Below are positions 10,993 through 61,401 of a stretch of 64,000 bases of DNA, in pieces. Made by a program: the position numbers and the translations under genes. Position 1 is the first letter of the stretch. The number at the start of each line of letters is the position of its first letter. Source of the stretch: Lachnospiraceae bacterium GAM79 (GTDB taxonomy: Bacteria; Bacillota_I; Bacilli_A; RFN20; CAG-826); NCBI GenBank assembly GCA_963619035.1, contig CAVEUC010000007.1, forward strand, positions 3,127-67,126, given 5' to 3'. The notes beneath the pieces were generated by a model that saw nothing but the letters and a program-made list of their open reading frames with translations, was not told the origin of the DNA and searched no databases.

Positions 10993-11017
10993 AAAAAGCA
11001 CATATATTAATATGTGC
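10993..11017 (-). terminator. Rho-independent terminator of the ABC/lipoprotein operon
   Basis: On the minus strand: stem GCACATAT, loop TAAT, stem ATATGTGC, then T5. It lies 8 nt after the stop of the 416-aa gene. Confidence 0.75.
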
Positions 11018-11024
11018 ATAATAT

Positions 11025-12275
11025 TTATTTAATTAAATTATTTTTCTTCTTTTTCTTTAATATAAAAATTGTTAAAAATATTATTAAACCAATTAATAAG
11101 ATAGAACCGATAATAGATAAAGAAAGAATAAGTGGTAAGCTTAATTTAGTATTTGTATCTTCTATTAAAACAACATAATTTCCTAATTTATCATTTTTAA
11201 ATTTAATATATCTACCATACCCTTCACAATCTATATTTTCTAGATTATCTTCATTTATATAATAAACTTTAACTTTATTTCTATTATAGTTTGGATTTGT
11301 TTCTATAAAACACTCAATATTATCTAGTAAAGATATCGAATCACCATTAGAATCTATAATGTTTAAATTAGTTATTTCAAATGTTGAAGAAATGTTACTA
11401 ACTAAATTTAAAATTTTATTATATGTTGTTCCAGATTCAATTCTTTGACATTGGATAATATAATCATTAGGTAAAATATTATTAATATCATTAATTTTAA
11501 CCATGTTACTTTCTATAGCATTACTAGTTAAAATAATTGTTTGTTTAGAATATGAATCATTACCTAAATTTGTCTTATATTCGTTTGTAGATGCTTTAAA
11601 ATCTATTGTGTAATCTCCTAATTCATCTACAAATATTTTATTGTCTTCAATTGGAATATTTTTTCCACTAGGAGAGGTTACTAAAGTAGAGACTTCTAGA
11701 TTAGAATCGTTAAAACTAGCTGTAGCTGAAGGTAATTTATAATATGAATTAAGTGTTGTTTCGATATTTCCTACTTCATCAATATTTAATATAGGAACAA
11801 ATCTAGCAGGATATTCTTTATTAATATCAACTTTATTTTCACTTTTAGTTAAATTATCTAAATTAGCTTTAATAGTAAAAGATATATCCATTCCCATTTT
11901 AGCTACAGATCCAGATAACTTTAATTCATTAATTAAATCTTCATATGAAAGAGTTATTGTGTATGTTGTTTTTTGTCCATTAATTTCTTCTTCAATACCG
12001 CTTTTTAAATTGGATGAAGGTAAAGATATATTTAATGATGATAAAGCATCGTTATTTAATAAAGTAATTGATAAAAAATATAATTCATCTTCTTTTACGA
12101 TATTAATTTCATCATCAAAATATTTTGAAATCATTTGATTTCCAATTTGACTAGTTCCACCTATTTCATAATTTGTTGAATAAATATAATAATCTTCAAT
12201 AGTAGTAGAAGTAATATTTTCACTTAATGGATTTAAAGGGAATAATAATAATGTTGTGAGTAATAATAGTTTCAT
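11025..12275 (-). CDS. Surface protein with cleavable signal peptide and C-terminal membrane anchor, unknown function
   Basis: 416 aa. N-terminus MKLLLLTTLLLFPL. C-terminal TM LILSLSIIGSILLIGLIIFLTIFIL followed by KKKKKNN. It starts 3 nt after the upstream gene. No catalytic motif recognised. Confidence 0.7.
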   Translation of the reverse strand: MKLLLLTTLLLFPLNPLSENITSTTIEDYYIYSTNYEIGGTSQIGNQMISKYFDDEINIVKEDELYFLSITLLNNDALSSLNISLPSSNLKSGIEEEINGQKTTYTITLSYEDLINELKLSGSVAKMGMDISFTIKANLDNLTKSENKVDINKEYPARFVPILNIDEVGNIETTLNSYYKLPSATASFNDSNLEVSTLVTSPSGKNIPIEDNKIFVDELGDYTIDFKASTNEYKTNLGNDSYSKQTIILTSNAIESNMVKINDINNILPNDYIIQCQRIESGTTYNKILNLVSNISSTFEITNLNIIDSNGDSISLLDNIECFIETNPNYNRNKVKVYYINEDNLENIDCEGYGRYIKFKNDKLGNYVVLIEDTNTKLSLPLILSLSIIGSILLIGLIIFLTIFILKKKKKNNLIK

Positions 12276-12278
12276 ATA

Positions 12279-15200
12279 TTAATCTCCAAATACAGCAACA
12301 ACTTTAAAATAACTATCTTCTAAATAAGTTTTTGAAACTTTTAATTCATCTAAAGAATTTATTTTAATTAATTGTCCACCTTGATAAATTGCCCAATATT
12401 TAAAATTATCTTTTGATTCTTGTTTTTTAACTAAATTATATTGTGCGCTTGTTAGTTGATCTTTAATCAATTGGTCTTCTAAAACAGAATAGTTAGGTAA
12501 TTGAAGTTCTTTGAAAGAATTTGTTCCATCGTAATTATAACTATAAAATTTAAGTTTAATTGGTTCTTTAATTATCGCTTCAATTGTAACGGATTCATTA
12601 AATTCAAATGACATGTCATTAGTATACGAAGTTTCGTATGAGTATTTTTTTTCATCCCCAATAACATCATAAAATATAGCTTTGTCGCATCTCCAACCAA
12701 CAAAACTATATCCGTTAGGAACATTAAAAACAAAATCACCTAAAGAAAAAGTATATTTACCATTAGATTTAAAATAAGTTTTTGTTTTGATAGTTTGCGT
12801 TACACCATTAATTGTATATTTTGCAGTGACTGTTAAGCCTTTATCCCAAACTGCTACAAGTAAAGGAGTAGTGGTATTTAATTTAGCTCCAATATTGCTT
12901 ACTTTTTGTCCAGGTTTTAAATAATCATTTGTTTGTCCGCTCTTTTTATAATAAGCCCACTTATATAAGTTATCTTCAGAATTTTCAAAATACGTGTTAT
13001 TTAATGCTAAATTTTCTTCACTTTGTTTGATTGTGGTCGTATAAGTTTGATCTCCATTTTCTAAAGTAATTACATTTGGTAAATCGCTTCTAAAAGGATG
13101 ATTTTTATCTGTTTTATAGGTTAAGGTTATCTCTTCATCTAAAGAATGTACAACGATATCTTCTTGTATTGTTATTTTTTTAATTCCATCGTTAAATACT
13201 GATTCTTCATTTTCATTTTCATTAAATCCTAACGTATATGTAATTCTATATTTTCCACTTGTTAAAAAGGTGTAACTTGAGTTGGATTGAGCAATATCTT
13301 TATCGGAAATATTAGTGTAATATCCGTTTGAATATTTTGTAAAACTAGGATAACTTGTTGATAAATTTGTTCCATTATCATCCATAACAATCAGTTCATT
13401 AAAAGTGTAATCGGTATTTGTAAAAAATTCTTTATTATTAGTGATTGAAAAATCTTTATATTGTTTGCCATTAATTTTTAAATTATAAGTTAAGTAAGTA
13501 GTATATATATCTTTATCATGGGAATATTGAAAATAAATTAAAGCATAATTTGAACTACTTAATGCGTTTTCTAATTCTACAATAGTAGTTCCTTCTATAG
13601 TATTTTCTTTTGTGTAACATACAAATTTATCAAGACCTAAATCATATTGATTTTCACCGATTTTTATTTTATATTCTGCATTAATTTCTTCACTTGGAGA
13701 AGTCAATTCTTCAGCTTCTAAGTTATCAACTTTAATTTCTCTTCTAGTTCCATCACTATAATAATATTGATTTCCACTATAAATTTTTTCACCATTTTTT
13801 AATATTTCGTATGTTCCTTTATTTTGACCTTCGTACATAAATATTAAATTCTTAGAATAACCATATCTATCTACTAAACGATATGAAACAACCATTGTAT
13901 CGCTAATCATTTCAAACATTGAACAATTCCAAACTTCATAGTTATAACTTATTTTTTTATAAGTAAATGAATTAAAATCATAAATGCTTATTTTAGAAAA
14001 ATTCATAAAATTAATATTATTTATACTGTTATAGGAATCTAATGAGGTGTAATTATTTCCGTAACTTGTATACTTAATTTCAGGGATGTGAGCTTTATCA
14101 CCTTTATAATATGTTTTAGATGATTTATAAGCTTGAATAGTATCATCATATGTCCAAGTATAATTAAAATCTTCATCATTATATTCATACGAATCATCAA
14201 TATTAATTATAGGATTTTCTTTTTTTATTATACTGATTATCGCATTTATTGTTTTACCATTTATTTCTCCAGATAAATATAATGCGACATTTTGAGTATA
14301 TTTAAATGTATTGTTTTCTGTTATGTTTAAATCGATAGTGGAAGTATAATCAATCTCGTTATTTGATTTAAGTTTATATGCTTTATATTTTAACTTTTCA
14401 TCAAGTAAATCACTATTAATTTTAGTTCTATATAAAGAATAGATATCGATGTATTCGTTTTCATTTGCCTCATATCCTAATTCTATTCTTTTCGTAAATC
14501 TTTGAGCGAAATTAGAAAATGTAGTCCATGAAATATAATCGACATATAATGGTGTTTTTGATACTGTTGGATCGTAACCATAGCATTCGCTTATTACTTC
14601 AAATGTAAAAATATTACCTTTATTTTCTTGAATTGAAGTAGTGGTAATTGGCTTGATTGTAACTTTAGTTGAATATAGTTCTTCAATCTTCTTTCCGTCT
14701 GTAGAACTATAAAAAATATTAACTAAATCATTAGACATTCCATATGTTTTTTCAGCTTCATAAATTGTATTATCTTTTAAAGAATCAAAATCTGTATATA
14801 AATAAAAAGCTTGCGTTTCTTTATACGAATAGCTATTTCCTGATAACGGAATATAATCGATACTAGATAATTTAACCATAGAAGAATAATCGATTACTAA
14901 ACGTTTATATGTTGGACCCATATTAAACATTTCTGTCATCGCTCCTGTTGAAGCTCCTATCAATATTAAATCGACATTAGCTTTATTCCCTAAATCGAAA
15001 GTATAGTAATATTTTCCTGTATTTTTATCAAATTCGTATGTTAAATCTCCAAAATATTGAGCATTGAAGAAATTAGCCCAATCAATATTAGCGAAATTTT
15101 CGTTAACATCTTCGTCGCTTGCTACGATACTATTATCAAATGTAAAATAAGTAAAATCTCTAGCATATCCTGTTCTAACATGGTTGTAATCTTCTTTAGA

Positions 15201-16211
15201 AAGATCTCCAATAATATCAGAATTGTATGTATTCATAGGTTTAATTAATTTATAATTACCATTTTTAGCATATAAATAAGAGTAGACTGGATTAAAACTA
15301 TCAAGCATTGATGCATCTTTATTTAAGTTAGCATAATGTGTTTTAACCAAGTAATATCCATCGTCTAATCTATCGTTATTATCAACGTAAGAAGTAGTAT
15401 ATCCAATAAATTTTGTGATATTAAATTCTACTGTATATCCAACTTTTGTATATATTCTATCATCTTCATTTTTTAATTTAGCATTCCAATTATAGAATTC
15501 AACATTTAAGTAGATACTATCAGATACTTTTAAATCTTTAAAATTATAATAAATAGTTTCGATAGTGCCTGTTCTATCGATAATGCTTTCTGTATCTGAA
15601 ATTCTAGAATCGTTATCTGAAACAGCGACAGTAAGCGTTCCTAAATTTCCTTCATCATCGATTGTTGGACAATGATATTTCATATCGTATTGAATACGTA
15701 GAAATAATCCGTTTTCATTTTTTTCGATATATGTCTCGCTTGAATTAATTAAAGAAGGGAATTCTAAATAACCATATGTATCTGCTAATTTACCTTTGAT
15801 TATTGTATCTTCTAATATATGAGCTTCGTACTCTATTTCATAAATTCCATTATTAATAAATTCTTCCTCTTCGAATTTAGCGTATAAAGTGACATTGCTC
15901 ATCTTCATTAAAAGATAATCTTCATCATATTGCTTAATATATGTTTCATCAAAATACCATCCTAAAAAACGATATCCGACTTTAGTAGGAGTAGGTAATT
16001 TAGGAATATTATTTGCAGTATAAATAACATCATTTATTGGTTCATCAAGATTATATGAACTAAACGATATTTTAAATTCTTTATCACCATAATTATTAAT
16101 AATAAGGTCTTTAGGAGTAATATTTGATGATGTACATGAACTTAAAGAAAATATTCCAATAGTTATAGATAAAAATAATAAGCATTTTTTTAATTTAGGT
16201 AGGTTATTCAT
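12279..16211 (-). CDS. Giant surface lipoprotein with Listeria-Bacteroides (Flg_new)-type repeats
   Basis: 1310 aa. Lipoprotein signal with lipobox IFSLSS-C. Repeat signatures GYRFLGWYFDETY...LYAKF near the N-terminus, and GYSFVGWRCD and FKYWAIY...VVAVF near the C-terminus. GGAGGG RBS. Confidence 0.75.
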   Translation of the reverse strand: MNNLPKLKKCLLFLSITIGIFSLSSCTSSNITPKDLIINNYGDKEFKISFSSYNLDEPINDVIYTANNIPKLPTPTKVGYRFLGWYFDETYIKQYDEDYLLMKMSNVTLYAKFEEEEFINNGIYEIEYEAHILEDTIIKGKLADTYGYLEFPSLINSSETYIEKNENGLFLRIQYDMKYHCPTIDDEGNLGTLTVAVSDNDSRISDTESIIDRTGTIETIYYNFKDLKVSDSIYLNVEFYNWNAKLKNEDDRIYTKVGYTVEFNITKFIGYTTSYVDNNDRLDDGYYLVKTHYANLNKDASMLDSFNPVYSYLYAKNGNYKLIKPMNTYNSDIIGDLSKEDYNHVRTGYARDFTYFTFDNSIVASDEDVNENFANIDWANFFNAQYFGDLTYEFDKNTGKYYYTFDLGNKANVDLILIGASTGAMTEMFNMGPTYKRLVIDYSSMVKLSSIDYIPLSGNSYSYKETQAFYLYTDFDSLKDNTIYEAEKTYGMSNDLVNIFYSSTDGKKIEELYSTKVTIKPITTTSIQENKGNIFTFEVISECYGYDPTVSKTPLYVDYISWTTFSNFAQRFTKRIELGYEANENEYIDIYSLYRTKINSDLLDEKLKYKAYKLKSNNEIDYTSTIDLNITENNTFKYTQNVALYLSGEINGKTINAIISIIKKENPIINIDDSYEYNDEDFNYTWTYDDTIQAYKSSKTYYKGDKAHIPEIKYTSYGNNYTSLDSYNSINNINFMNFSKISIYDFNSFTYKKISYNYEVWNCSMFEMISDTMVVSYRLVDRYGYSKNLIFMYEGQNKGTYEILKNGEKIYSGNQYYYSDGTRREIKVDNLEAEELTSPSEEINAEYKIKIGENQYDLGLDKFVCYTKENTIEGTTIVELENALSSSNYALIYFQYSHDKDIYTTYLTYNLKINGKQYKDFSITNNKEFFTNTDYTFNELIVMDDNGTNLSTSYPSFTKYSNGYYTNISDKDIAQSNSSYTFLTSGKYRITYTLGFNENENEESVFNDGIKKITIQEDIVVHSLDEEITLTYKTDKNHPFRSDLPNVITLENGDQTYTTTIKQSEENLALNNTYFENSEDNLYKWAYYKKSGQTNDYLKPGQKVSNIGAKLNTTTPLLVAVWDKGLTVTAKYTINGVTQTIKTKTYFKSNGKYTFSLGDFVFNVPNGYSFVGWRCDKAIFYDVIGDEKKYSYETSYTNDMSFEFNESVTIEAIIKEPIKLKFYSYNYDGTNSFKELQLPNYSVLEDQLIKDQLTSAQYNLVKKQESKDNFKYWAIYQGGQLIKINSLDELKVSKTYLEDSYFKVVAVFGD

Positions 16212-16231
16212 AAACCCTCCTTTCTAATAAT

Positions 16232-19210
16232 TTATAAAGCAGCTGTTTTTAAAGTTTTAATTGAATCGTAATTATCAATCCAATTTTCTTCAAATAAATC
16301 TGGTAAGGCTTCAACAAGAGTTTGAATTGTTGTGACACTTGTTGTTAAGTTTAAACCAGTTGAAGAATATATAATTCCTAGTTTTTTTACTGATGAATTA
16401 GTTATAGCATTTGTATGAATCTTTAAAATAGATAATAGGGCAATATTATAAAAGTTCGATAATTCAATTTTATACATTGCCCCTGTCATTACTTCGTATC
16501 TAACAATATAATTTTCATCAGTGTGATTTTCACCGATATAAATTGATTCAATTTGTGATTGAGAAGCATTAGCGAATGCGTACATTTTGATGTCATATGT
16601 TGTTATATTTGTTTCAGTATTTAATGAAGAGGAAACTTTTTGATTTAACATTACAAATTTAGAAGAAGTATATAATTGATATTTAACAAAATAGAATTCA
16701 CCATCTTTTATATTTTTTACATCTCTATTTCCTTCTTCGCTAACAGGAATAAATTCCTCTAAAGTTTCAATTTTAAATGCGGAATTTCCAACTGTTTTTA
16801 ATGATTCGACGCTAAATGAAACTGAGGTTAAAGCAGTATCTTCAAATGCGCTTTCACCTATTGATTCAAGTTTTGCATCATTAAAATCAATAGTTGTTAA
16901 ACTAGCATTTTCTTTAAATGCATTATCACCTATTGTCTTTATATTTTTACCCATTTGAATAATTTTAATTAAACCATTTTCTAAGAATGCATCATTATTA
17001 ATTGAAGTTACTTTATTTCCTTCAATAGTATCTGGAATTATTATTGCACATGTTCCGTCGCTTAAATAAATAGCACTATCAGGATCAAATCCAGTTATTT
17101 TAACTTCTCCATTTTCAGTAGTATAAGTTACACCAGCTGATTCGAGGTTATATTCGAATTGAATATCTAAATAAAGATTGGTTTTTATTGAACTTGTAAT
17201 ATCGTAATCTTTAGACATATTTAAAGTTTTAGAAATTTTAATTGTTCCATTTGATACTAAGTTTTTGTAAGTTGTATTTTCTTGAGCATCTAATGTGGTT
17301 AAAATTTCATCATATGTAATAGCGTTTTGGTTTTCTCTATTAATTGAAATACTATATGTTTCACCTGTTAAATTGTTAATAAAATTAACTTTTACTAAAG
17401 GCGTATTTGTCTCTATTAAATTAACGGCTTTGACATCTTTATAAATTACGTCATCACTAGTAACAAAGTTTCCATAATAATATGCCCATTCTGATTCGTT
17501 TCCACCAAATGCTTTATAGACGCTTTCATCAACTTCACTATTAAAAACAAGGTATTCCATACTATCTAAATTAGACACAATTAAACGAGCATTATATGCT
17601 AATATGTCATCGCTTAAAGTTGAGTCGTATAAATAACATTCTATATTAGCGTAGGTAGATTCGTTCCATGCATAGCAATCTAAATAATCTGATAAATTTA
17701 AATTGTAATTAACAAATTTAAATGATTTAGGTAGTACTAATCTTTTTAAATCGGTTCTATTTACGAATGTTCCAACTTGAATTCCTTCAATTCCTTCAGG
17801 AACTGTGATTATACCATTTTCATCGATATTATCGTATGAAATTAATACTTTTCCTTTTTCTGTTGTTTGAGTAATCATATTTCCTTCATTTTTAAAAGAT
17901 GAATTGGAAGAGAATTTTAAATTCTGAGGGACAATAGATAAGCTTTTTACTGAATCTGGAACGTCGATATCAAAATCGTACTCACTTCCTGTATAGAATG
18001 TTTGTGCTTCGTTATTATAATTGACAACTCCACCTTTAAAGAATGATGCATAAATTGCATCAACTCCGTTAGGAATCTTAACACTATCTTTTGTAATGTT
18101 TAAATTATTAAAACAGTTTTGAATAATTTTTAATGTTGATGGAAGTTCAAAAGAAGTAACTCCTGATGTGCCGCTTGTTGATGAAAAACCACGAATGTAT
18201 TTAATACCTTCTTGAACAATTACTTTTTTAAGGTTCGTTGAATTAAATGTTTTATTATCAAATATATAAACAGCATTAACTTCTCTAAGTTCTTTTTCAC
18301 CTGACTTATTAACTATAGTTACTTTATGAGGGAATGAAATTACAGGTACATTATCTAGTTTTGTTTTATTGTAATCACTTCCATTGTATGTTCCGTAAGT
18401 TGATAAGCAGACAAGTTTGGTGTTTCCGCTAGTATTTTTTAATTCTGAATATTTTAAAAATGGTGATTTCCATAAAACTTTAATAGTGGTGTTTTTTGTG
18501 ATTGCTTTAGAGAAATCGATTTCATTTCCTTCTTCATCCACATAATATATATCTTCATTAGACATATATGATTTTACGATATTGTTTTCTTCAACAGTTT
18601 TAGTTACTCCTTCAACTTCAATAGTATCTAATGAAGGATTTTTAAGTGCTGTATTTGGTTTAACTTTTGTAGTGTATACATCTTCATAACCATTATTAAA
18701 AGTAATAGTAGCTACGCTTTGAGCATATAATGTTTTAGCTGGATCACCTTCATTATATTTAACTTTACATTCGCTATCTGTATACCATCCATCAAAAGTT
18801 AAATCTTTTCCTGGATTATATGTTCCATTAACTACATCGATTAAATCTCTAGTACCTTGGGATTCTCCATTGATATAAATATTAACTTCATCAGCTACAA
18901 AATAAGCATAGACTGTTGCGCCTTCATTTAAATCTTCGTTTTTAAATTCTTTTACCCAATTAGTATCGTAAAACCATCCTCTAAATGTGTAATATTTTTT
19001 AGTTGGATTTGTAGGAAGAGTAACTTTTCCATCGACAATAGTTGCTTCTTCTACATAATTTTTCCATTCTCCGTTTTCGTCTTGAATTTTAAAAGTTATG
19101 GTCTTTGTTACAGTTTGACCTTGATTACCAGTGTTACAAGAAGTTATTGTTCCTGATAACAATAAACTTGCAGATAATAATGTTAATCCTAAAATTTTTC
19201 TTTTTTTCAT
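16232..19210 (-). CDS. Surface lipoprotein with Flg_new-type repeats and BspA-type leucine-rich repeats
   Basis: 992 aa. Lipobox GTITS-C. Flg_new-type repeats YTFRGWFYDTNW...VYAYF and TFDGWYTDSECK...LYAQS. LRR units IGDNAFKENASLTTIDF, IGESAFEDTALTSVSF and VGNSAFK. Confidence 0.75.
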   Translation of the reverse strand: MKKRKILGLTLLSASLLLSGTITSCNTGNQGQTVTKTITFKIQDENGEWKNYVEEATIVDGKVTLPTNPTKKYYTFRGWFYDTNWVKEFKNEDLNEGATVYAYFVADEVNIYINGESQGTRDLIDVVNGTYNPGKDLTFDGWYTDSECKVKYNEGDPAKTLYAQSVATITFNNGYEDVYTTKVKPNTALKNPSLDTIEVEGVTKTVEENNIVKSYMSNEDIYYVDEEGNEIDFSKAITKNTTIKVLWKSPFLKYSELKNTSGNTKLVCLSTYGTYNGSDYNKTKLDNVPVISFPHKVTIVNKSGEKELREVNAVYIFDNKTFNSTNLKKVIVQEGIKYIRGFSSTSGTSGVTSFELPSTLKIIQNCFNNLNITKDSVKIPNGVDAIYASFFKGGVVNYNNEAQTFYTGSEYDFDIDVPDSVKSLSIVPQNLKFSSNSSFKNEGNMITQTTEKGKVLISYDNIDENGIITVPEGIEGIQVGTFVNRTDLKRLVLPKSFKFVNYNLNLSDYLDCYAWNESTYANIECYLYDSTLSDDILAYNARLIVSNLDSMEYLVFNSEVDESVYKAFGGNESEWAYYYGNFVTSDDVIYKDVKAVNLIETNTPLVKVNFINNLTGETYSISINRENQNAITYDEILTTLDAQENTTYKNLVSNGTIKISKTLNMSKDYDITSSIKTNLYLDIQFEYNLESAGVTYTTENGEVKITGFDPDSAIYLSDGTCAIIIPDTIEGNKVTSINNDAFLENGLIKIIQMGKNIKTIGDNAFKENASLTTIDFNDAKLESIGESAFEDTALTSVSFSVESLKTVGNSAFKIETLEEFIPVSEEGNRDVKNIKDGEFYFVKYQLYTSSKFVMLNQKVSSSLNTETNITTYDIKMYAFANASQSQIESIYIGENHTDENYIVRYEVMTGAMYKIELSNFYNIALLSILKIHTNAITNSSVKKLGIIYSSTGLNLTTSVTTIQTLVEALPDLFEENWIDNYDSIKTLKTAAL

Positions 19211-19237
19211 ATGTATTTTCTCCTTTAATTAATAATT

Positions 19238-21466
19238 TTAAATATCGTATCTAGCTATGATTTCACTTGGTGTTTTATTTATAACGAATAAATAAGGGAT
19301 AAGTGAAACTAATACCATAAGTATTCCTCCACTTATAAATAAACCTAAATTTATTAGTATAAACACACCGTAAGATATATTAGATACAAAATAATATATT
19401 GAACATAGGATTGTTCCTAATGTTAATATCAATAAAAAAACTGAAATATTTTTATATATTGTTCTAATTGTTTCTTTAAATAATAAGTTAGATTTATTGA
19501 CTCCAATTGCTCTATAAATTCCGTATTCTTTGCTATTTTTAGTGCTATCTGACATTTCTAAGAAATAGTAGATCATATAAAGAAGTAGCAATCCTCCTAG
19601 ACATATATAAATTATTTGCAGATGAGATTTTAGCGCTTCTTCATCTTGCTTATCATATATATTTTTAATATTTACAGTAGATACTCCTCTTTGCTTAAAT
19701 CTATTTTTTAGGTTTTCAAGTTGTTCTTCGTTAGATGTTGATATTTCAAAATAGTAAGCAGTAGATGTATCGTTTCCTAATATTTCAATATTTGGAGTTA
19801 AATATATAAATATATTGTTTAAAGCTTCTTGGGTTACGTATATTACCATATCAGTTGATATATCTTCCCTAGTTATTGAAAAACTTTTAATATACATTTC
19901 GCTATTTTCTATATAAATTGCAGTAGACATATCAACTAATTTTTTGTTTGCTTCTTCGACTAAATAATCTCCTTGAGATGTATCTTCCATCATTTTATAT
20001 AATGAATTTCTAGATAAATCGATTACTGCTTGATTGTTAGTAATTTCTTTTTTACCTTCATAAACTTTAATAGTTGCACTATATGTCATAGAAGAAAATT
20101 CATCTTTTAATAAAATATTTTGGTTATCTATTATTTTTAAATCATTATAAATTCCTAGGTAGTTTACATAGTCTTGTTTTTTAAAATATACTATTGAATC
20201 CTCACTATTTACTATTCCAGATATTTTATAATTATTATCAAATTTCATTAGTAATAGTGCTTCATCTTTAGACAAATCTTCGTTTCTTATATCGTGTTTT
20301 ATTTTCTTAGCTAACCCACTAGAAATTAATACTTCATTTGAATTAGGCATTGATCCAAATATATTTTCAAAAGTAGTGGTTTCTTCGATTGGTTTAGGTG
20401 TGTATTTTTCTTTTACCCCTTTTATAGAAGAAATATTATCGTATGAAAATGTTGCTTCTTTCATGTTAATTTCGTAAAAATCAATTGAATCGTAATATTC
20501 TTTATTAATCATAGGTAATTCAGAATAGGAATTTAATTGAGTATAAACTGCATTTTCATTAATTGTTTTATGGACGTTTTCTATGCTTAAAGTATTATTT
20601 ATAATAAATCCAAAGGCGCATATACATGCCGCCATTAATGAAATAAATATTGTTTTTAATATATTAGAATCTTTATTAATCGATTTTTTAAATATATTTT
20701 TAAAATCGAATAATTTACCAGTTTTTCCTTTTTCACTTTTATTAAAATCAAGTGCTTTTACATCGTGACTTTCTTCTAATTTATATCCTTTTATATTTTC
20801 TACAATTGTATTTTCAACTAATTTTCCATCTATTAATTCAATATGATTATCAGCGTATTTATTAATCAAACTAGTTTCGTGAGTAACCAAGACTACAAGT
20901 TTTGTTTTAGAAATTTCTTTTAAAATATCCATTACTTTAATAGTGTTTTGACTATCTAAGTTTCCAGTAGGTTCATCAGCTAATATAATATCTGATCCTT
21001 TAATTAAAGCTCTAGCAATTGCAACTCTTTGCTTTTGACCACCGGATAATGCATCAGAATTTTTCTTTTCATATTTTTTTAAATCAACTAAATCTAATAC
21101 GATATCTAAACGTCTTTTGATTTCGTTTTTGTCTGAAAAACCTGCTATTTTCATTTGATTTATTAAAATTTCACCAATCGAACAATTACTTTCAAGATAG
21201 TAGTTTTGAAAGATATATCCTATTTTTTTATTTCTTATTTTATCCCTATTTGAATTAGTTATTTTAATATTATCAATTATAACTTCACCAGAATCTTGTT
21301 TATCTAATCCTCCGATAATATTAAGAAGAGTTGTTTTACCGGAACCTGATTTACCAAATATTGCAAATAATCCTTTTTCAGGTAATTCAAATGAAATATC
21401 GTTCAAGATTTTTGTTTTTTTAAATGCATTACCATATGTTTTGTTTAAATGAGATATCTTTATCAT
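19238..21466 (-). CDS. Fused ABC ATPase plus FtsX/MacB-type permease (subunit 2)
   Basis: 742 aa. Walker A GKSGSGKTT, signature LSGGQKQR, Walker B ILADEPTGNLD. After the ATPase come one TM, a large extracytoplasmic domain of roughly 300 aa, and three C-terminal TMs. ATGA overlap with the upstream gene. Confidence 0.8.
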   Translation of the reverse strand: MIKISHLNKTYGNAFKKTKILNDISFELPEKGLFAIFGKSGSGKTTLLNIIGGLDKQDSGEVIIDNIKITNSNRDKIRNKKIGYIFQNYYLESNCSIGEILINQMKIAGFSDKNEIKRRLDIVLDLVDLKKYEKKNSDALSGGQKQRVAIARALIKGSDIILADEPTGNLDSQNTIKVMDILKEISKTKLVVLVTHETSLINKYADNHIELIDGKLVENTIVENIKGYKLEESHDVKALDFNKSEKGKTGKLFDFKNIFKKSINKDSNILKTIFISLMAACICAFGFIINNTLSIENVHKTINENAVYTQLNSYSELPMINKEYYDSIDFYEINMKEATFSYDNISSIKGVKEKYTPKPIEETTTFENIFGSMPNSNEVLISSGLAKKIKHDIRNEDLSKDEALLLMKFDNNYKISGIVNSEDSIVYFKKQDYVNYLGIYNDLKIIDNQNILLKDEFSSMTYSATIKVYEGKKEITNNQAVIDLSRNSLYKMMEDTSQGDYLVEEANKKLVDMSTAIYIENSEMYIKSFSITREDISTDMVIYVTQEALNNIFIYLTPNIEILGNDTSTAYYFEISTSNEEQLENLKNRFKQRGVSTVNIKNIYDKQDEEALKSHLQIIYICLGGLLLLYMIYYFLEMSDSTKNSKEYGIYRAIGVNKSNLLFKETIRTIYKNISVFLLILTLGTILCSIYYFVSNISYGVFILINLGLFISGGILMVLVSLIPYLFVINKTPSEIIARYDI

Positions 21467-23523
21467 TTTGAACCCCTCCTTAATGCTTGAGAGATCTTTG
21501 TTCTATTCATATTTTTATTGAATCCATAAGCTACTAGAATAACTATTAAAAGAATTAATAATTCAATAAATATGTAATTTCCTACACTAATTATTGGTAA
21601 AGCTAAAGATTTAATTAGAGTTGATAAAAAAGAAAGTAGTGGAAGAATTATTAATGTAGGAAGATAAGTTAATAATAATTGAACATATAATGAACCTTTT
21701 GAAATGGATGATGATATACCAAGTGTTTTATATATTGCAAAATCAGCTTGGTAGATTTTAATACTTCTCATAAAAATGACAAATAAAACTGCTGCTAATA
21801 TAATGCTAACTATGATTAAACATGCATAATACAAAATATTTAATGCAAATATATTTCCAACATTAGAAACGTAAACAATAGAAGTAGAAAGCATTCCTAT
21901 ATAGTTAGTTGGTAATATGTTTAATGATTGTTTTGCTAAATCGTCATTTTCAAAATATATAGCGGATTGCTTACTCTTTTTTGTAGATTCAAATAATTCT
22001 TTATAGTCGGTTTCACTTAATTCAACAGCAATGCCATCGATAGTTTTATCTTTTTTTGTATCATCAATAACTGTAAAGATTTTTGATGTTGAAATGTCCG
22101 TAGTTAAGTTTTTACCTTTTACATCGTAGTAACTAGAATTAACTAAATTAATTTCACCTTCGTTTAATTCGTTATTGGTTTTAAAAGTAAATATTTTTAC
22201 TTCATTATCTCCTATTTTAACGGTTGAATTAATTGCTTTAATTTTATTACCATTAGTTTGCATATTGTCATAAGACAAATATAATCTTAAATCTTGATTA
22301 TCGAACGTTGTTTGAACATCGATTTTATTAATTGAAGTTGTTGCACTTTCAATTAATTCAACAATTGTATTAGCGTCGTCTTTAAAAGCGTTTGGGATTA
22401 TTAATAAACCTTCTTTTTCATTAACTTTATAATGGATTGGATCGTAAATACATGATATTTCATATTCTTGATACATATTTCCTTTTTTAGGAACAGTAAT
22501 AGTAAATTCTGATAAATCACGGTCATAGATATAATAAGAAGCTTTTGTATCGTAACAAATTAAATCAAGTTGATCTTCTTCTACGTATCCATTTGTATTT
22601 GATATGATAACTTTTCCTTCGATTCCGACATCATCTAAAGTTTTAGTGATATCATTAATTAAAAATACATTTACAGTTTGAAATGCTGCAAATAAAGCAG
22701 TAGTTATGCAACATAGTGCTAAAGACATTAAAGTTGAAAATTTAGGTCTAGATTTATAATTCAATAAACCTAATCTAAATATATTTTTAATTTTTAATTT
22801 TTTATCAATATTTTTGGTTTGAATTGATATATTTTTCTCAGTTGGTTTTTCTTTTATCTTGTCTTCTTTTAAATTTCCATCAGCAATTACAATTCTTCTT
22901 GTCGAATATTCATTAAAATATTCTGGATTATGTGTAACTATAATAACTAACTTATCTTTAGAAACTTCTTTTAAGATTTTTGCAACTTCTCTAGAGGATT
23001 TTGAATCTAAGTTACCAGTAGGTTCATCAGCTAAAATAATAGGAGAGTCTTTAGCTAATGCTCTAGCTATAACACAACGTTGTTTTTCACCTCCTGATAA
23101 ATGAGATCCTTTATGGTTTATTTGTTTTGTTAATCCAACTTTATCTATTAATTCTTTAGCTAATTTTTTTCTTTCTTTTATGTCTTTTAATCTAAATAAT
23201 GCTAATTCAACGTTTTCATAAACTGTTAAATTTTCAATAATATTAAAATCTTGGAAAATCATCGCAATATTGTTTTCACGATATTTCTCCCAATCTAAAG
23301 ATGAGTAGTGCGATGTTTCTTCATTATTAAAATAAAGTTCGCCTTCTTCATAAGAATCATTAGCTGCTATAACATTAAGTAATGTTGATTTCCCTGAACC
23401 AGATTCACCTTCAATTGTAACAAATTCATTATAATCGAAATTAAGATTTATATTTCTAACCCCGATAGTTAATATGTCGTTAGAATTGTATATTTTTCCA
23501 ATGTTTTTTAATCTAAGTAACAT
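21463..23523 (-). CDS. Fused ABC ATPase plus FtsX/MacB-type permease (subunit 1)
   Basis: 686 aa. Walker A GESGSGKST, signature LSGGEKQR, Walker B ILADEPTGNLD. It has the same topology as the downstream paralogue: TM, large loop, three TMs. AGGAGG RBS. Confidence 0.8.
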   Translation of the reverse strand: MLLRLKNIGKIYNSNDILTIGVRNINLNFDYNEFVTIEGESGSGKSTLLNVIAANDSYEEGELYFNNEETSHYSSLDWEKYRENNIAMIFQDFNIIENLTVYENVELALFRLKDIKERKKLAKELIDKVGLTKQINHKGSHLSGGEKQRCVIARALAKDSPIILADEPTGNLDSKSSREVAKILKEVSKDKLVIIVTHNPEYFNEYSTRRIVIADGNLKEDKIKEKPTEKNISIQTKNIDKKLKIKNIFRLGLLNYKSRPKFSTLMSLALCCITTALFAAFQTVNVFLINDITKTLDDVGIEGKVIISNTNGYVEEDQLDLICYDTKASYYIYDRDLSEFTITVPKKGNMYQEYEISCIYDPIHYKVNEKEGLLIIPNAFKDDANTIVELIESATTSINKIDVQTTFDNQDLRLYLSYDNMQTNGNKIKAINSTVKIGDNEVKIFTFKTNNELNEGEINLVNSSYYDVKGKNLTTDISTSKIFTVIDDTKKDKTIDGIAVELSETDYKELFESTKKSKQSAIYFENDDLAKQSLNILPTNYIGMLSTSIVYVSNVGNIFALNILYYACLIIVSIILAAVLFVIFMRSIKIYQADFAIYKTLGISSSISKGSLYVQLLLTYLPTLIILPLLSFLSTLIKSLALPIISVGNYIFIELLILLIVILVAYGFNKNMNRTKISQALRRGSK

Positions 23524-23557
23524 ATTTACCTCCTAGTTAGTTATATTTAACTTTAAA

Positions 23558-23586
23558 AGTATATAACATAAAAGAACGCTATTCAA
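23558..23586 (-). promoter_or_regulatory. Promoter of the ABC/lipoprotein operon
   Basis: On the minus strand: TTGAAT (23586-23581), 17-nt spacer, TATACT (23563-23558). This is followed by AGGAGG and the ATG at 23523. Confidence 0.6.
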
Positions 23587-23643
23587 TAAATATGTTAGTT
23601 AAAACTAACTATTAATTATTTGTATGTTTAATTAATGATTAAA

Positions 23644-25914
23644 TTAAAGAATATGTTTAATAAAATGACCGTGTGTATCGGTGATGTTATCAAAACATTT
23701 AGTAGATAATTCACCATTAAGTTTTAAATTAACTTGTTTTATTATATTTAAAATTTCTTCATTAGATTCATCAGTAAAAATTAATCTTAAATAATTGATA
23801 TGATTCAAATCATCAATTAAATCGATATTGTTTAATGTTTTAGAATTTAAAACTTTAATAGTGCAATCATCATTAAAAATTAAAGGAAAGCTTTCATATC
23901 TATCCTTTAATGAATATTTATTAATTTTACATTGTCCACACATATTTAATCTTTTTAAAGGACAATATTTTGAGTGCATTAAAGTTATTTTTCCATAAAT
24001 TATAACTTCCAAATTTGGATAAAAATTATATTCAGAATAAAAATTATTAACTAACTTATTGATGTGATCTTTATTAATTTCTAATGATAATGTGATTCTT
24101 TTAACACCTAAAGAAGATAAAAGAGCAACATTTTTATAATTGGTAACATTAAAAGAGTAATCAGATACTATATTGATGTTTTTATTTTTATAACATTCTA
24201 ATCCACCATATCCTCCAACTAAAACAGAGTTTGTGTTTAAATCGTTATATTTTTCGTTGTTTCTTCTAACTATATTTTTATAATAAATATTTTTATAACC
24301 TAATTCAGTAAGTAAATCATATTGTTTTTGAGTGTTAACTTCAAAAACAAGCTCTGTATTTGTAGTGTTAATATTATTATTTATAGGAATTATTTCATCT
24401 ATTTCTTTATTATAAATAACATCTCTTTTTAATCTAATTTTATTTAATTCTTCAATTGCTTTACGTCTAACTTCATTTATTTCTTTTAATGGTATAAAAA
24501 GATTATTTTCACAATCGATATTATAATTTTCAATATAATAAGGAGTGTCGTTTAATTTATTAAGTTGTGTTTTAACATTATCAATTGTGGTAGAAGAAGA
24601 AATCGCTTTTTCAATCTTAATAGTTCCTGAAGAAAAAGCTTTATAGTTTTTATATTCTACTTTTAAAAATAAAACTCTATTTTCTTTTGCTACAAACTCA
24701 ACATTAATAGGTAATTTTTTATATTCTTTAATTAATAAATTTTGTTTTATTTCATTTAAATATTTAATATCTTTTGTTTTATATACTTTTGCACCTAACT
24801 TAACTTTTTCATCTAAATAAATAATAGCCATCTTATTATTTGTTTGAGAAATATTAAAATTAGCATCGAACATTTTTGTAATAGGTACGCTTATTTCTTT
24901 AAAAATATCTTCAGATTCAATACGAATTTGATCACCTTTATTTAATTCTTTAAATAATCTAATCCATACTTTATTTTTATTTATTTTAGCTATTTCACCA
25001 ATTAAATACCCGTAATTATTAGGTCTTTCTATATTTGTAATATTGTTAACTAATTCGTGATTAATATATCCTTTTGTATAAGTTCTATTAAAAACTTTAT
25101 CTAAGTTTGATACATTGACTTTTTCATTATCTACTAATTTTCTATATGTAGAAGTTACACTTGAAACATAACTTGGCTCTTTCATTCTGCCTTCAATTTT
25201 AAAAGAATCGATAAAGAGCATATTTTTTAAATAATCAGCAGTATTTAAATCTTTCATAGAAAGGAGATAACCTTTTTTAATTTCGGAATTGTTTGTTTCA
25301 TCAATCAATGTATAAATTTGTCTACAACATCCTGCGCACCTTCCTCTATTTCCGCTACGATCTCCAATCATTGAAGACATTAAACAATTTCCTGAATAAG
25401 AGACACATAAAGCACCATGAATAAAAGTTTCTATTTCGATATTTAATTTGTTTTTAACTTCTTTTAAAGTTTCTAAAGAAGTTTCCCTAGCAAAAACAAC
25501 TCTTTTTACATTTAAATCTTTTAAAAGTTTAGCACCATAATAGTCATCGATTCCCATTTGAGTTGAAGCATGAGCTTCTATAGATTTATATTTAGTAGCA
25601 ATATAATTTAATAAAGTTAAATCTTGAACAATAATAGCATCCACTCCGATTTCAGCTAATTTATCAACTGTTTTATAAGCTTCTTCTAATTCTTCATCAA
25701 AAAGAATTGTGTTCATTGTTACATAAATTTTAACATTTCTAAGATGAGCATAATCTACATATTCTTTTAAATTATCTAAAGAAAAATTCTTTGCATATGC
25801 TCTAGCACTAAATTTATCTAATCCTAAATAGATTGCATTAGCTCCGCTAGATATTGCTGCATAGAAAGATTCTTTATCTCCACTAGGAGAGAGTACTTCG
25901 TTTTTAATTTTCAT
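23644..25914 (-). CDS. U32-family protein, long form (RlhA/YdcP-like candidate Fe-S RNA hydroxylase; historically annotated as a collagenase-like peptidase)
   Basis: 756 aa. U32 signature ETFIHGALCVSYSGNCLMS. Cys pattern C-x6-C-x15-C-x3-C (CVSYSGNC ... CAGCC). It has a long C-terminal extension containing a second Cys cluster, CPLKRLNMCGQC. Confidence 0.75.
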   Translation of the reverse strand: MKIKNEVLSPSGDKESFYAAISSGANAIYLGLDKFSARAYAKNFSLDNLKEYVDYAHLRNVKIYVTMNTILFDEELEEAYKTVDKLAEIGVDAIIVQDLTLLNYIATKYKSIEAHASTQMGIDDYYGAKLLKDLNVKRVVFARETSLETLKEVKNKLNIEIETFIHGALCVSYSGNCLMSSMIGDRSGNRGRCAGCCRQIYTLIDETNNSEIKKGYLLSMKDLNTADYLKNMLFIDSFKIEGRMKEPSYVSSVTSTYRKLVDNEKVNVSNLDKVFNRTYTKGYINHELVNNITNIERPNNYGYLIGEIAKINKNKVWIRLFKELNKGDQIRIESEDIFKEISVPITKMFDANFNISQTNNKMAIIYLDEKVKLGAKVYKTKDIKYLNEIKQNLLIKEYKKLPINVEFVAKENRVLFLKVEYKNYKAFSSGTIKIEKAISSSTTIDNVKTQLNKLNDTPYYIENYNIDCENNLFIPLKEINEVRRKAIEELNKIRLKRDVIYNKEIDEIIPINNNINTTNTELVFEVNTQKQYDLLTELGYKNIYYKNIVRRNNEKYNDLNTNSVLVGGYGGLECYKNKNINIVSDYSFNVTNYKNVALLSSLGVKRITLSLEINKDHINKLVNNFYSEYNFYPNLEVIIYGKITLMHSKYCPLKRLNMCGQCKINKYSLKDRYESFPLIFNDDCTIKVLNSKTLNNIDLIDDLNHINYLRLIFTDESNEEILNIIKQVNLKLNGELSTKCFDNITDTHGHFIKHIL

Positions 25915-57825: not shown

Positions 57826-57845
57826 TTATTATTAGTGAAAAGAAT

Positions 57846-57878
57846 TAAAAAAAACTCTATAATAAATAGAGTTTTTTT
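57846..57878 (+). terminator. Rho-independent terminator after rpsO
   Basis: ACTCTAT-AATAA-ATAGAGT followed by T7. It lies inside the GTG-initiated N-terminal extension of the next ORF in the track, which argues against that extension. Confidence 0.8.
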
Positions 57879-57891
57879 AATGGGTTTTAGT

Positions 57892-59637: not shown

Positions 59638-59638
59638 T

Positions 59639-61399: not shown

Positions 61400-61401
61400 T
61401 T

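Follow-up and report, generated by a model that had tools for sequence, protein, structure and literature searches.

The five closely packed minus-strand genes at 11025–23523 of the window (the whole 64-kb stretch of DNA analysed) form an operon that encodes two fused ABC proteins, two giant lipoproteins and an anchored protein with a NEAT-like domain. We tentatively read it, at a probability of about 0.45, as a system for haem capture at the cell surface that is under metal control and driven by a heterodimeric type VII ABC motor. The initial annotation had suggested extraction or display of the operon's own lipoproteins. The likely job moves to haem or iron capture because of the NEAT domain, a conserved operator, the neighbouring genes in related genomes and the conservation of the partner proteins.

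Organization of the operon

The features are as follows (ORF coordinates in the window):

23594–23609, unstranded: operator palindrome 1, GTTAGTTAAAACTAAC, a perfect GTTAG-N6-CTAAC, just upstream of the −35-like hexamer
23558–23586, minus strand: promoter-like site TTGAAT-17-TATACT
23536–23551, unstranded: operator palindrome 2, mismatched at one position, lying after the −10-like hexamer and before the ribosome-binding site
23529–23534, minus strand: ribosome-binding site AGGAGG, 5 nt 5′ of the ABC1 ATG, from reading of the sequence
21463–23523, minus strand: ABC1, 686 aa, fused ATPase/permease
19238–21466, minus strand: ABC2, 742 aa, second fused ATPase/permease
16232–19210, minus strand: LP992, lipoprotein of 992 aa
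12279–16211, minus strand: LP1310, lipoprotein of 1310 aa
11025–12275, minus strand: ANC416, 416 aa, C-terminally anchored
11856–12185, minus strand: NEAT-like domain of ANC416, residues 31–140, from Pfam and profile matches
10998–11017, minus strand: terminator-like hairpin with an 8-bp stem, then TTTTTATTT, 8 nt past the ANC416 stop codon

The ABC2 start and the ABC1 stop overlap by 4 nt, and the remaining gaps, derived from the coordinates, are 27, 20 and 3 nt, as first described. The terminator was also located where it had been placed, with a T-run following the hairpin (11017–10998). The single promoter claimed initially does exist as a site, but it matches the consensus at only 9/12 positions and such matches are not enriched over shuffles (82 found, 109 expected). 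It gains support from its location in the sole intergenic gap upstream of ABC1. All five genes are enclosed by this single promoter with its operator and a single terminator.

Conservation of the cassette

The five-gene cassette is widespread among uncultured gut bacteria and is found in identical order in about 45 species-level genomes, which belong to RF39/Acholeplasmatales-like Bacilli and to Christensenellales and other Clostridia. Orthologues of the partners accompany ABC1 at nearly every locus (ABC2 in 51/52, LP992 in 46/47, LP1310 in 45/46), and the gene order is unchanged in 44 of 45 orthologous loci. Among orthologues, the ABC pair therefore almost never occurs without the lipoprotein genes, a result in favour of the initial annotation. 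Distant relatives of the pair, with ~25% identity in the permease half, do exist without surface proteins (L069).

The ABC1 and ABC2 proteins

Both ABC proteins follow the topology TM1, large outside domain, TM2–4. In ABC1, the ATPase (residues 1–225) is followed by an elbow helix, TM1, an outside domain of ~265 aa and TM2–4; the outside domain of ABC2 comprises ~320 aa. The unusually large extracytoplasmic domains reported initially are thus present, as are the ATPase motifs: Walker A, Q-loop, signature, Walker B with the catalytic Glu (E167 in ABC1, E165 in ABC2) and H-loop are intact in both chains. The ABC1 family (320 matches) has a length of 686–689 aa. Both ATPase domains fall in the LolD/FtsE/MacB group, with the lactococcin-972-type exporter, LolD, DarD, FtsE and MacB as best NCBIfam families.

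The proposed MacB architecture is recovered by structure comparison. The top seven matches of the ABC1 AF2 model (pLDDT 83.7) are full-length MacB chains (E 1e-29, TM 0.53–0.55), aligned end to end over ~720 columns, and on this model ABC1 has a MacB-type fold. The HrtBA ATPase chain (7w7b) is listed among the structural matches. The description of the two proteins as paralogues holds for the ATPase domains (37% identity) but not for the permease and outside halves, between which no relationship was detectable (hhalign 6.5%). The FtsX-type label fares similarly: Pfam FtsX gives no match in the window's own ABC proteins, but is weakly matched by 16 of 26 ABC2 orthologues (E ≤ 1, best 3e-5) and also by one distant ABC1 relative. 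A sequence search of the permease halves against solved chains, including HrtB, gave no match.

ABC1 and ABC2 are most likely the halves of a type VII (MacB-like) ABC protein, forming a heterodimer in which both ATP sites are active. They share with the superfamily (MacAB-TolC, LolCDE, FtsEX, HrtBA and YbbAP-TesA) the ATPase subfamily and a permease of four TM helices, the first two of which are separated by a large outside domain, and the entire ABC1 chain superposes on MacB. The dedicated extracytoplasmic partners are comparable to those in FtsEX-EnvC, LolCDE-LolA and YbbAP-TesA (PMC7668044, PMC12646458). In contrast to these systems, both chains carry ATPase and permease as a fusion and have diverged from each other beyond recognition outside the ATPase, and the outside domains are larger. 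A NEAT protein and the two giant lipoproteins take the place of a membrane-fusion protein, LolA or a hydrolase as partners.

The giant lipoproteins LP992 and LP1310

The assignment of both proteins as lipoproteins is confirmed by their lipoboxes, ITSC in LP992, where Cys is the consensus residue among orthologues, and LSSC in LP1310, where Cys26 is invariant. In LP992, Flg_new domains at the N-terminus are combined with a BspA-type leucine-rich-repeat (LRR) region at the C-terminus. Pfam detects LRR_5 and Flg_new in 25/25 orthologues, and the protein matches solved BspA-type LRR proteins (for example 4gt6 at 8e-43). In LP1310, a single Flg_new domain (Pfam) precedes ~1200 aa of tandem β-sandwich domains that match no Pfam family. 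The repeats described initially are therefore present as Flg_new in both proteins and LRR_5 in LP992; no significant internal sequence repeats were found in LP1310, which is not a sequence-repeat protein. The best Foldseek matches of the LP1310 AF2 model (pLDDT 87.8) are the S-layer protein Sap and generic β-sandwich arrays, with TM scores of at most 0.11, and the structure comparisons offer no pointer to a ligand for either lipoprotein fold.

Both proteins align with their orthologues over the whole length, with ~90 full-length orthologues for LP1310. The earlier picture of variable, adhesin-like repeat lipoproteins gives way to one of conserved 1:1 orthologues.

ANC416 contains a NEAT-like domain

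The signal peptide and C-terminal anchor ascribed to ANC416 are both present, the latter as a TM segment with a KKKKK tail; no LPXTG motif is found. The NEAT-like domain, followed by two more β domains, had been overlooked. Pfam NEAT is matched by 22/22 orthologues (best 7.6e-11) and HemeBinding_Shp by 5/22, with the window's own protein scoring 19.8 bits against NEAT, under the 32.8-bit cutoff. The profile of the domain matches solved IsdX1 (1.4e-5), IsdX2 NEAT (IsdX2-N5; 2e-3) and, weakly, IsdC, while a PDB search with the full-length profile returned no NEAT chain. On these profile matches, the N-terminus of ANC416 is homologous to NEAT domains.

The canonical haem ligand motif YxxxY is absent from the domain, and its SxxxxY is not conserved among orthologues. 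M48, which aligns with the lip Met of the IsdX1 'SRMNRYF' segment, does not vary in alignment A8 and is kept in at least 90% of alignment A9. Y52, F53, M127 and F133 are almost invariant in A8, with M127 absent from two Christensenellaceae orthologues. This pattern fits the 'Clostridial group' of NEAT domains, which lack YxxxY and have a conserved Met before β8 and a conserved Phe on β8 (PMC4143258). NEAT proteins of C. perfringens bind haem (PMC5026354), while some NEAT domains bind none (PMC4143258). Shp has a recognised NEAT haem-binding domain (PMC6593403) with bis-Met ligation (PMC4143258), and a hydrophobic segment with a charged tail at its C-terminus is thought to anchor it (PMC5026354). 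The predicted C-terminal TM anchor makes ANC416 Shp-like, and the protein may bind haem.

A conserved operator and its neighbourhood

The initial annotation had also missed the operator and, in related genomes, the metalloregulator, CydDC-like and ECF neighbours. The same palindrome type occurs within 250 nt upstream of ABC1 in 35/47 related loci, and in orthologous loci a site lies 26 to 50 nt before the ABC1 start. GTxxG-N6-CxxAC palindromes number 119 in ~1 Mb of related loci; 98 could be placed relative to ABC1, and 64 of these lie within 250 nt upstream of it. The remaining palindromes are mostly upstream of a divergent DtxR/MntR-like gene heading a neighbouring operon that encodes a CydD/CydC-like pair and an ECF transporter. 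In Christensenellales, adjacent genes preceded by the operator encode MntR/DtxR-like regulators, a CydDC-like pair of exporters and an ECF transporter. The best-scoring family for the neighbouring regulators is the manganese regulator MntR rather than an iron sensor.

We infer that the cassette is probably repressed at the two GTTAG-N6-CTAAC palindromes by a metal-responsive regulator of the MntR/DtxR family. No regulator, ECF transporter or CydDC-like gene was found in the 64-kb window, so the iron/haem context comes from other lineages. ECF-type haem importers are known (PMC7299338).

Comparison with known haem systems

Known haem systems are among the closest parallels. In the Christensenellales loci, an ECF transporter and an exporter-type ABC pair are found nearby under a DtxR-family regulator, as in the S. 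pyogenes sia operon; MtsR belongs to the DtxR family. This neighbourhood resembles the MtsR-controlled shr-shp-siaA-H operon, whose Shr-type receptor also contains LRRs (PMC6593403). The Shp/Shr-SiaABC (HtsABC) relay further shares a NEAT surface protein without YxxxY, with conserved Met residues, a C-terminal TM anchor and a charged tail (PMC4143258, PMC5026354). Unlike that relay, the cassette has a type VII motor and no substrate-binding-protein-dependent type II importer, its NEAT and LRR modules are on separate proteins, its receptors are lipoproteins rather than wall-anchored, and its hosts are gut commensals, some probably wall-less, rather than pathogens.

Likeness to the Isd systems of S. 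aureus and B. anthracis (IsdX1/X2) lies in the ANC416 profile matches. The Cht locus of C. perfringens likewise has two exporter-type ABC fusion proteins (PMC5026354), and the Met/Phe signature without YxxxY is common to ANC416 and the clostridial NEAT group (PMC4143258). In contrast to Isd and Cht, the operon has no sortase, LPXTG/NPQTN signal, IsdE/F-type importer or haem oxygenase, a single NEAT domain, and a palindromic operator instead of a Fur box. LRR proteins act in haem uptake in IlsA (PMC2777315) and in Shr and HupY (PMC6593403). LRR and NEAT modules are joined in one haem-acquisition system in IlsA/Hal (NEAT and LRR) and HupY (LRR), as proposed here (PMC2777315, PMC6593403). The LRRs of the cassette differ in being BspA-type (LRR_5) and on a separate 992-aa lipoprotein, for which haem binding is not predictable.

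Alternative functions

A motor for handling or displaying surface proteins would extract, release or activate its own lipoproteins in a LolCDE-like manner, for adhesion or a coat, with a NEAT-like domain that is a structural Ig-like module and binds no haem. We consider this unlikely. In its favour, both lipoprotein genes always come after the ABC pair, LolCDE also joins two diverged FtsX-type permeases in a heterodimer and LolD is among the best ATPase matches, BspA-type LRRs are typical of adhesins, LP1310 is closest to S-layer Sap and other β-sandwich arrays, and YxxxY is missing from the NEAT domain. However, a LolA-like carrier is missing, as is an outer membrane to serve as target, the partners evolve slowly rather than variably as adhesins, and the Foldseek TM scores of LP1310 are very low. 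Nor would such a motor account for the conserved Met/Phe signature, the Shp-family matches, the operator in common with MntR/DtxR-like regulators, or the CydDC-like and ECF genes nearby. An ordinary efflux or peptide-resistance transporter of the MacB, BceAB or YknYZ type beside surface-protein genes is highly improbable: the top NCBIfam ATPase match is a bacteriocin export family and the distant relatives of the pair lack surface proteins, but the co-occurrence in fixed order spans two classes, one promoter/operator and one terminator bracket the five genes, and their products match no membrane-fusion-protein family in Pfam or NCBIfam. The permeases are 4-TM, not the 10-TM type of BceAB, and no two-component system or bacteriocin gene adjoins the operon in the window.

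Haem detoxification, in which ABC1/ABC2 would pull excess haem from the outer leaflet and pass it to the NEAT protein and lipoproteins as an extracellular sink, is distinctly unlikely. HrtBA, to our knowledge the only type VII ABC system that handles haem, acts on it at the outer leaflet, and its ATPase chain is among the ABC1 matches; the NEAT homology of ANC416 and the exporter nature of the CydDC-like neighbours would also fit. Pulling substrates out of the outer leaflet or the periplasm is characteristic of type VII proteins (PMC12646458, PMC5985334). Against this, the permease halves match neither HrtB nor any other solved chain in sequence, and in the window the operon adjoins neither a haem-sensing two-component system nor an HrtR-like gene. 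ABC1 and ABC2 are fused proteins of two distinct orthologous families. HrtB, in contrast, is homodimeric, its ATPase HrtA is a separate chain, its outside domain is smaller, and neither NEAT proteins nor lipoproteins are among its partners. Haem sensors switch on the known hrtBA genes, while MntR/DtxR-type operators usually repress uptake genes.

A model for haem capture

For the preferred haem-capture reading, we envisage that haem or a related metalloporphyrin would be captured from the gut lumen when metal is limiting, with LP992 and LP1310 as receptor or scaffold and ANC416 as a haem-binding relay. The ABC1/ABC2 pair would carry no substrate through the membrane; ATP hydrolysis would move its outside domains, which would act on the three partners at the membrane surface and power the stripping or hand-over of tightly bound haem. 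Physical contact of the pair with these partners and the direction of transfer are presumed in this model. Haem would enter by a separate route, in Christensenellales the adjacent ECF transporter. We know of no type VII ABC protein in haem uptake; HrtBA, the single haem-related member known to us, exports haem.

No description of a MacB-like motor combined with giant lipoproteins and a NEAT protein was found in the literature. We regard the combination as undescribed, and propose that the cassette, with its conserved gene order, is a five-part envelope machine of two distant Bacillota lineages.

A conserved five-gene operon

The cassette consists of five open reading frames on the minus strand at 11025-23523, with coordinates as in the initial annotation.

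21463-23523, minus strand, ABC1, fused ATPase/permease protein, 686 aa
19238-21466, minus strand, ABC2, fused ATPase/permease protein, 742 aa
16232-19210, minus strand, LP992, lipoprotein, 992 aa
12279-16211, minus strand, LP1310, lipoprotein, 1310 aa
11025-12275, minus strand, ANC416, C-terminally anchored protein, 416 aa

These coordinates reproduce the reported 4-nt overlap and the gaps of 27, 20 and 3 nt. The G+C content is ~25%, and the reading frames are intact under code 11. ABC1 is preceded by a 120-nt intergenic region with AGGAGG 5 nt 5' of its ATG, and the proposed terminator corresponds to an 8-bp hairpin and a T-run 3' of the last stop codon. The proposed promoter, TTGAAT-17-TATACT, is present, but the match is weak and such sites are not enriched over shuffled sequences. 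The operon is flanked by a U32 peptidase gene and a GPH-family symporter gene. Upstream lie divergent U32-family genes at 23644-25914 (minus strand) and 25991-27211 (plus strand), one of which encodes 756 aa with U32 and DUF3656 domains and TrhP/UbiU-like matches; no link between these two genes and the cassette was seen.

The permease half of ABC1 has 320 relatives in a large protein collection, nearly all of 686-689 aa and unnamed, and an exhaustive HMMER search yields only 78 representatives at 50% identity. Scanning a single genome for each species gave 64 loci (L-numbers below; coordinates after a number are positions within that locus), all from gut or rumen MAGs. They are labelled Clostridium sp. 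CAG:307, Anaeroplasmataceae, Acholeplasmatales, Christensenellales/Christensenellaceae, Catabacter or 'uncultured Clostridia'. The closest loci (L001-L007, L026) are titled Alistipes onderdonkii, Bacteroides uniformis, Paludibacteraceae, Prevotellaceae or Lachnospiraceae; their gene content fits RF39/Anaeroplasmataceae-type loci, and the bin labels look wrong.

The open reading frames of each locus were searched with the five window proteins, and partners were counted among loci with enough flank. ABC2 is present in 51/52, LP992 in 46/47 and LP1310 in 45/46, and the gene order is the same in 44/45. Partners are missing only from L043, in which ABC1 is fragmented. ANC416 is found wherever the 10-kb flank reaches it, and is complete in L015, L065 and L066. 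The two lipoproteins had been described as adhesin-like; instead of variable adhesins, they are fixed components whose orthologues align end to end (960-1060 aa for LP992, 1226-1370 aa for LP1310).

Two paralogous whole cassettes occur in one genome at L024/L027 (MGYG-HGUT-04445) and at L050/L053 (CAUUJG010000001.1), the latter ~30 kb apart. Broken copies were also observed: ABC1 is in three pieces with no partners at L043:152-2240, LP992 is split in two at L009:12956-15996, and several cassette genes are broken at L023:11324-20920, in a 1.78-Mb 'complete chromosome'. These may be pseudogenes or assembly frameshifts.

The HMMER search also brought up a distant clade of ABC1-like proteins (700-790 aa, ~25% identical in the permease half), which is followed by a second fused ABC/FtsX protein of 785-980 aa.

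L069:1232-6438, distant ABC pair
L068:64-4652, distant ABC pair
L070:834-4675, distant ABC pair

The initial annotation considered the ABC pair to be dedicated to its lipoproteins. This holds for the orthologues, which nearly always occur with their partners, but not for the distant pair in L069, where neither lipoprotein nor NEAT genes follow. The tandem ABC pair thus appears to be the older arrangement, and the five-gene cassette a specialised derivative.

ABC1 and ABC2 resemble MacB-type motors

The ATPase domains of ABC1 and ABC2 match Pfam ABC_tran at 1e-32 and contain all catalytic motifs, including those read initially. Their best NCBIfam families are L_ocin_972_ABC (lactococcin-972-type exporter), LolD, DarD, FtsE and MacB (1e-43 to 1e-57), all under the equivalog cutoffs, and the nearest solved ATPases include MJ0796, a pneumococcal MacB-like system, MacB and LolD. 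The two domains share 37% identity over 226 residues (E = 3e-36) by Smith-Waterman and phmmer. Given this relationship, the absence of any ATPase alignment in BLASTP of ABC1 against ABC2 is an artefact; negative pairwise BLASTP results on these proteins from an AT-rich genome are not to be trusted. The C-terminal halves, comprising the permease and outside domains, show no relationship in a profile-profile comparison with hhalign (6.5%), and their profiles have no relevant match among PDB sequences.

The AF2 model of ABC1 (40 sequences, pLDDT 83.7) contains an elbow helix, helices 260-287, 555-601, 605-636 and 647-672, and an alpha/beta outside domain at 290-553. It thus predicts four TM helices and long stalk helices, with TM1 separated from TM2 by a large extracytoplasmic domain, and hydropathy gives ABC2 the same layout. 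The top seven PDB matches of the model are full-length MacB chains (5lil, 5lj7, 5gko, 5lj6, 5nik), aligned over ~720 columns (TM 0.51-0.55, E as low as 1.4e-29). The Pfam FtsX family (PF02687) matches window ABC2 at E = 1.3 and window ABC1 not at all. Among orthologues it is detected in 16/26 for ABC2 at E<=1 (best 3e-5) and in 2/25 for ABC1 (best E 0.36). A distant ABC1 relative reaches 1e-4 (22.8 bits, under the 25.5-bit cutoff), and the partner genes of distant relatives match as well. The predicted fold supports a MacB architecture for ABC1; for ABC2, weak sequence matches and topology support the same assignment. Based on the ABC1 model and the FtsX matches of ABC2 orthologues and a distant ABC1 relative, we place both proteins in the type VII class. 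They probably form a heterodimer, since both are half-transporters encoded by overlapping genes, and members of the two orthologous families occur together in 51/52 loci.

Several familiar systems do not fit this pair. A MacAB-TolC-type tripartite pump would include a membrane-fusion protein, and none of the five products matches such a family in Pfam or NCBIfam; the immediate flanks are unrelated to efflux. With 4 rather than 10 TM helices per protein and a U32 peptidase and a GPH symporter as flanks, the pair is not a BceAB-type peptide-resistance transporter, and topology and context likewise rule out YknYZ and bacteriocin export. In the case of LolCDE lipoprotein release, the ATPase is fused in both chains, no LolA-like family occurs among the five products and the LolD equivalog cutoff is missed (171 vs 307.75 bits). 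The cassette lineages are Bacillota, which also counts against LolCDE, a system that needs an outer-membrane destination.

Two lipoproteins and a NEAT-family protein as partners

LP992 has a lipobox, and its Flg_new domains and BspA-type LRR block are found in 25/25 orthologues; it strongly matches solved BspA-type LRR proteins (4gt6, 8e-43). LP1310 has a lipobox with an invariant Cys26 and one Flg_new domain. In 26 orthologues, the remaining ~1200 aa match no Pfam family, and significant internal sequence repeats are absent from LP1310. The AF2 model of residues 111-1310, built from 45 sequences (pLDDT 87.8), consists almost entirely of beta structure. Foldseek matches it to generic tandem beta-sandwich arrays (Sap S-layer, alpha-2-macroglobulin, cadherins) at TM 0.11 or less, which does not allow a functional call. 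The two lipoproteins have in common the signal peptide, the lipobox and the first Flg_new domain, and nothing else. ANC416 shares no domains with either of them in hhalign comparisons.

Window ANC416 matches Pfam NEAT (PF05031) below threshold (E 1.1e-3, 19.8 bits). The family is matched by 22/22 aligned orthologues (best 7.6e-11), HemeBinding_Shp by 5/22, and many database orthologues carry a precomputed NEAT annotation. A full-length ANC416 profile finds only a weak phage-protein match in the PDB, and the link to NEAT structures needs a profile of the N-terminal domain. This profile (A9) matches the solved NEAT domains of IsdX1 (3sik, 3sz6) at 1.4e-5 and IsdX2-N5 (4h8p) at 2e-3, and IsdC weakly. 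The orthologues and the domain profile together assign ANC416 to the NEAT family.

M48 is aligned to the Met in the lip of IsdX1 ('SRMNRYF'). The ANC416 lip reads G-x-Q/S-M-I-x-K-Y-F, with Ser in some orthologues only, and the SxxxxY motif of the 3-10 helix is not conserved; the YxxxY haem-ligand motif of strand beta8 is absent from the domain. In an alignment of orthologues (A8), M48 is invariant, and Y52, F53, M127 and F133 are nearly so. NEAT domains of the 'Clostridial group' lack YxxxY; their beta7-beta8 loop carries a conserved Met, and strand beta8 a conserved Phe (PMC4143258). C. perfringens NEAT proteins bind haem (PMC5026354). ANC416 is similar in the missing YxxxY and the conserved Met and Phe. 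In S. pyogenes, Shp has two Met residues as ligands (PMC4143258) and is believed to be anchored by a hydrophobic segment and a charged tail at its C terminus (PMC5026354). ANC416 has the same kind of hydrophobic anchor and charged tail, and M48, M127 and F133 recall this bis-Met protein. Isd and Shp-Hts loci have a substrate-binding lipoprotein with a type II ABC importer, and usually a sortase and a haem oxygenase; none of these families occurs among the operon products and immediate flanks of the cassette.

A common putative operator and metalloregulator-like neighbours

Reading the upstream regions of 24 loci revealed a recurring palindrome, GTTAG-N6-CTAAC, a putative operator (below, the operator). 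Two copies are located in the window.

23594-23609, operator, perfect, on one side of the promoter-like site
23536-23551, operator with one mismatch, on the other side of the promoter-like site

Other near-matches in the window (29002, 47927) lie inside or beside unrelated genes and were taken as chance. Related loci (~1 Mb) contain 119 perfect GTxxG-N6-CxxAC palindromes. A position with respect to an ABC1 start could be assigned to 98 of them; 64 of these fall within the 250 nt 5' of ABC1, in 35/47 loci. The arms co-vary (GTTCG..CGAAC, GTAAG..CTTAC). We take GTTAG and CTAAC to be the pentamers of the classical IdeR/DtxR iron box core, at a spacing of 6 nt versus 1; that box is 19 bp long and differs from the operator in its arm spacing. 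In several RF39-type loci, the upstream operator copy encloses the -35 box (GTTAT-TGACAA-CTAAC).

The other palindromes mostly stand in front of a small gene ~7 kb upstream in Christensenellales-type loci (4.3 kb in L040, 0.45 kb in L009). It encodes a divergent winged-helix protein, as at L009:8258-8650 and L042:2011-2427, whose best family matches are MntR (5e-10) and the N-terminal domain of DtxR (up to 1.2e-7); a clearer MntR/DtxR-type gene, such as L029:1903-2286, adjoins it in at least 8 loci. The operon headed by this gene encodes exporters resembling CydD (397.6 bits) and CydC (311.8 bits), both scoring slightly below the cutoffs, as well as an ECF transporter whose S component is of the MptD/Trep_Strep type. 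At L029:1903-9113, two MntR/DtxR-like genes, the CydD/CydC-like pair and the ECF transporter lie 5' of the cassette on the same strand, a layout repeated in L013, L019, L024, L027, L034, L037, L042 and L057. Operators of the form GTTAG-N6-CTAAC precede this operon, as they do the cassette.

Orthologues of the regulator, the ECF S-component and the CydDC-like pair were not found within the 64-kb window; any such regulator of the cassette would have to be encoded elsewhere in this organism. An exporter-type ABC heterodimer (600 and 586 aa) at 57835-61399 (plus strand) is only a generic homologue of the CydDC-like pair. It is followed by an ABC-F protein (628 aa), the whole stretch spanning 57835-63288 (plus strand), and is preceded by a short unannotated ORF and no operator. 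An Rfam search of the window and seven loci detected no riboswitch, which rejects control by a B12 or metabolite riboswitch.

The cassette and its Christensenellales neighbours resemble the MtsR-controlled shr-shp-siaA-H operon (PMC6593403) and the Cht locus (PMC5026354), and the neighbouring ECF transporter recalls ECF haem importers (PMC7299338).

Possible role in haem handling

The cassette is a conserved five-gene module that combines a MacB-fold motor, a NEAT-family partner and a common operator. The ABC1/ABC2 heterodimer would act by mechanotransmission on three membrane-tethered partners. We infer that the system handles haem under metalloregulation, with ANC416 as its putative haem-binding protein. 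We favour acquisition over detoxification, because DtxR/MntR-type repressors, whose usual targets are uptake genes, and ECF importers are encoded beside the cassette in related loci. It is improbable, in our estimate, that the motor instead detoxifies haem in the manner of HrtBA: such control and these neighbours would point to uptake. To our knowledge, though, HrtBA is the only haem-related type VII system, and it is an exporter; in addition, the regulators are closer to MntR than to an iron sensor, which counts against acquisition. The machine for Lol-like release or display of surface proteins suggested by the initial annotation, also unlikely if slightly less so, explains neither the NEAT signature nor the regulatory context.

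A more specific form of haem acquisition, to which we assign a probability of roughly 0.2, is energised nutrient capture in single-membrane bacteria, in which a heterodimeric type VII motor takes the role that TonB has in Gram-negatives. Cytoplasmic ATP would drive conformational changes in the giant surface lipoproteins and the NEAT protein, so that haem or another metalloporphyrin from dietary or host haemoproteins is stripped and passed on to be taken up. Such a machine, if real, would set two precedents: a type VII ABC system that serves acquisition, and a NEAT pathway dependent on energy supplied outside the membrane.

We found no description of this gene set in the literature. None of the components is new in kind, but their conserved combination seems to be undescribed, as do the LP1310 family and the operator. 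The cassette defines five protein families and one regulatory motif, and the permease halves of ABC1 and ABC2 as well as LP1310 are without informative annotation. It is carried by RF39-like Bacilli and Christensenellales, gut lineages that are widespread and for the most part uncultured. Their genomes are small, and 12.5 kb of strictly conserved, entirely unannotated sequence is a large investment for them. The operator and the regulator families offer a handle for regulon prediction in metagenomes. If the haem reading is wrong, a MacB-like heterodimer is still near-obligately tied to three fixed surface partners, and the cassette would be a clean new system in which to study the action of type VII motors on extracytoplasmic clients. 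If it is right, haem capture through NEAT proteins would reach beyond Gram-positive pathogens into commensals, and type VII mechanotransmission would gain a new kind of task.
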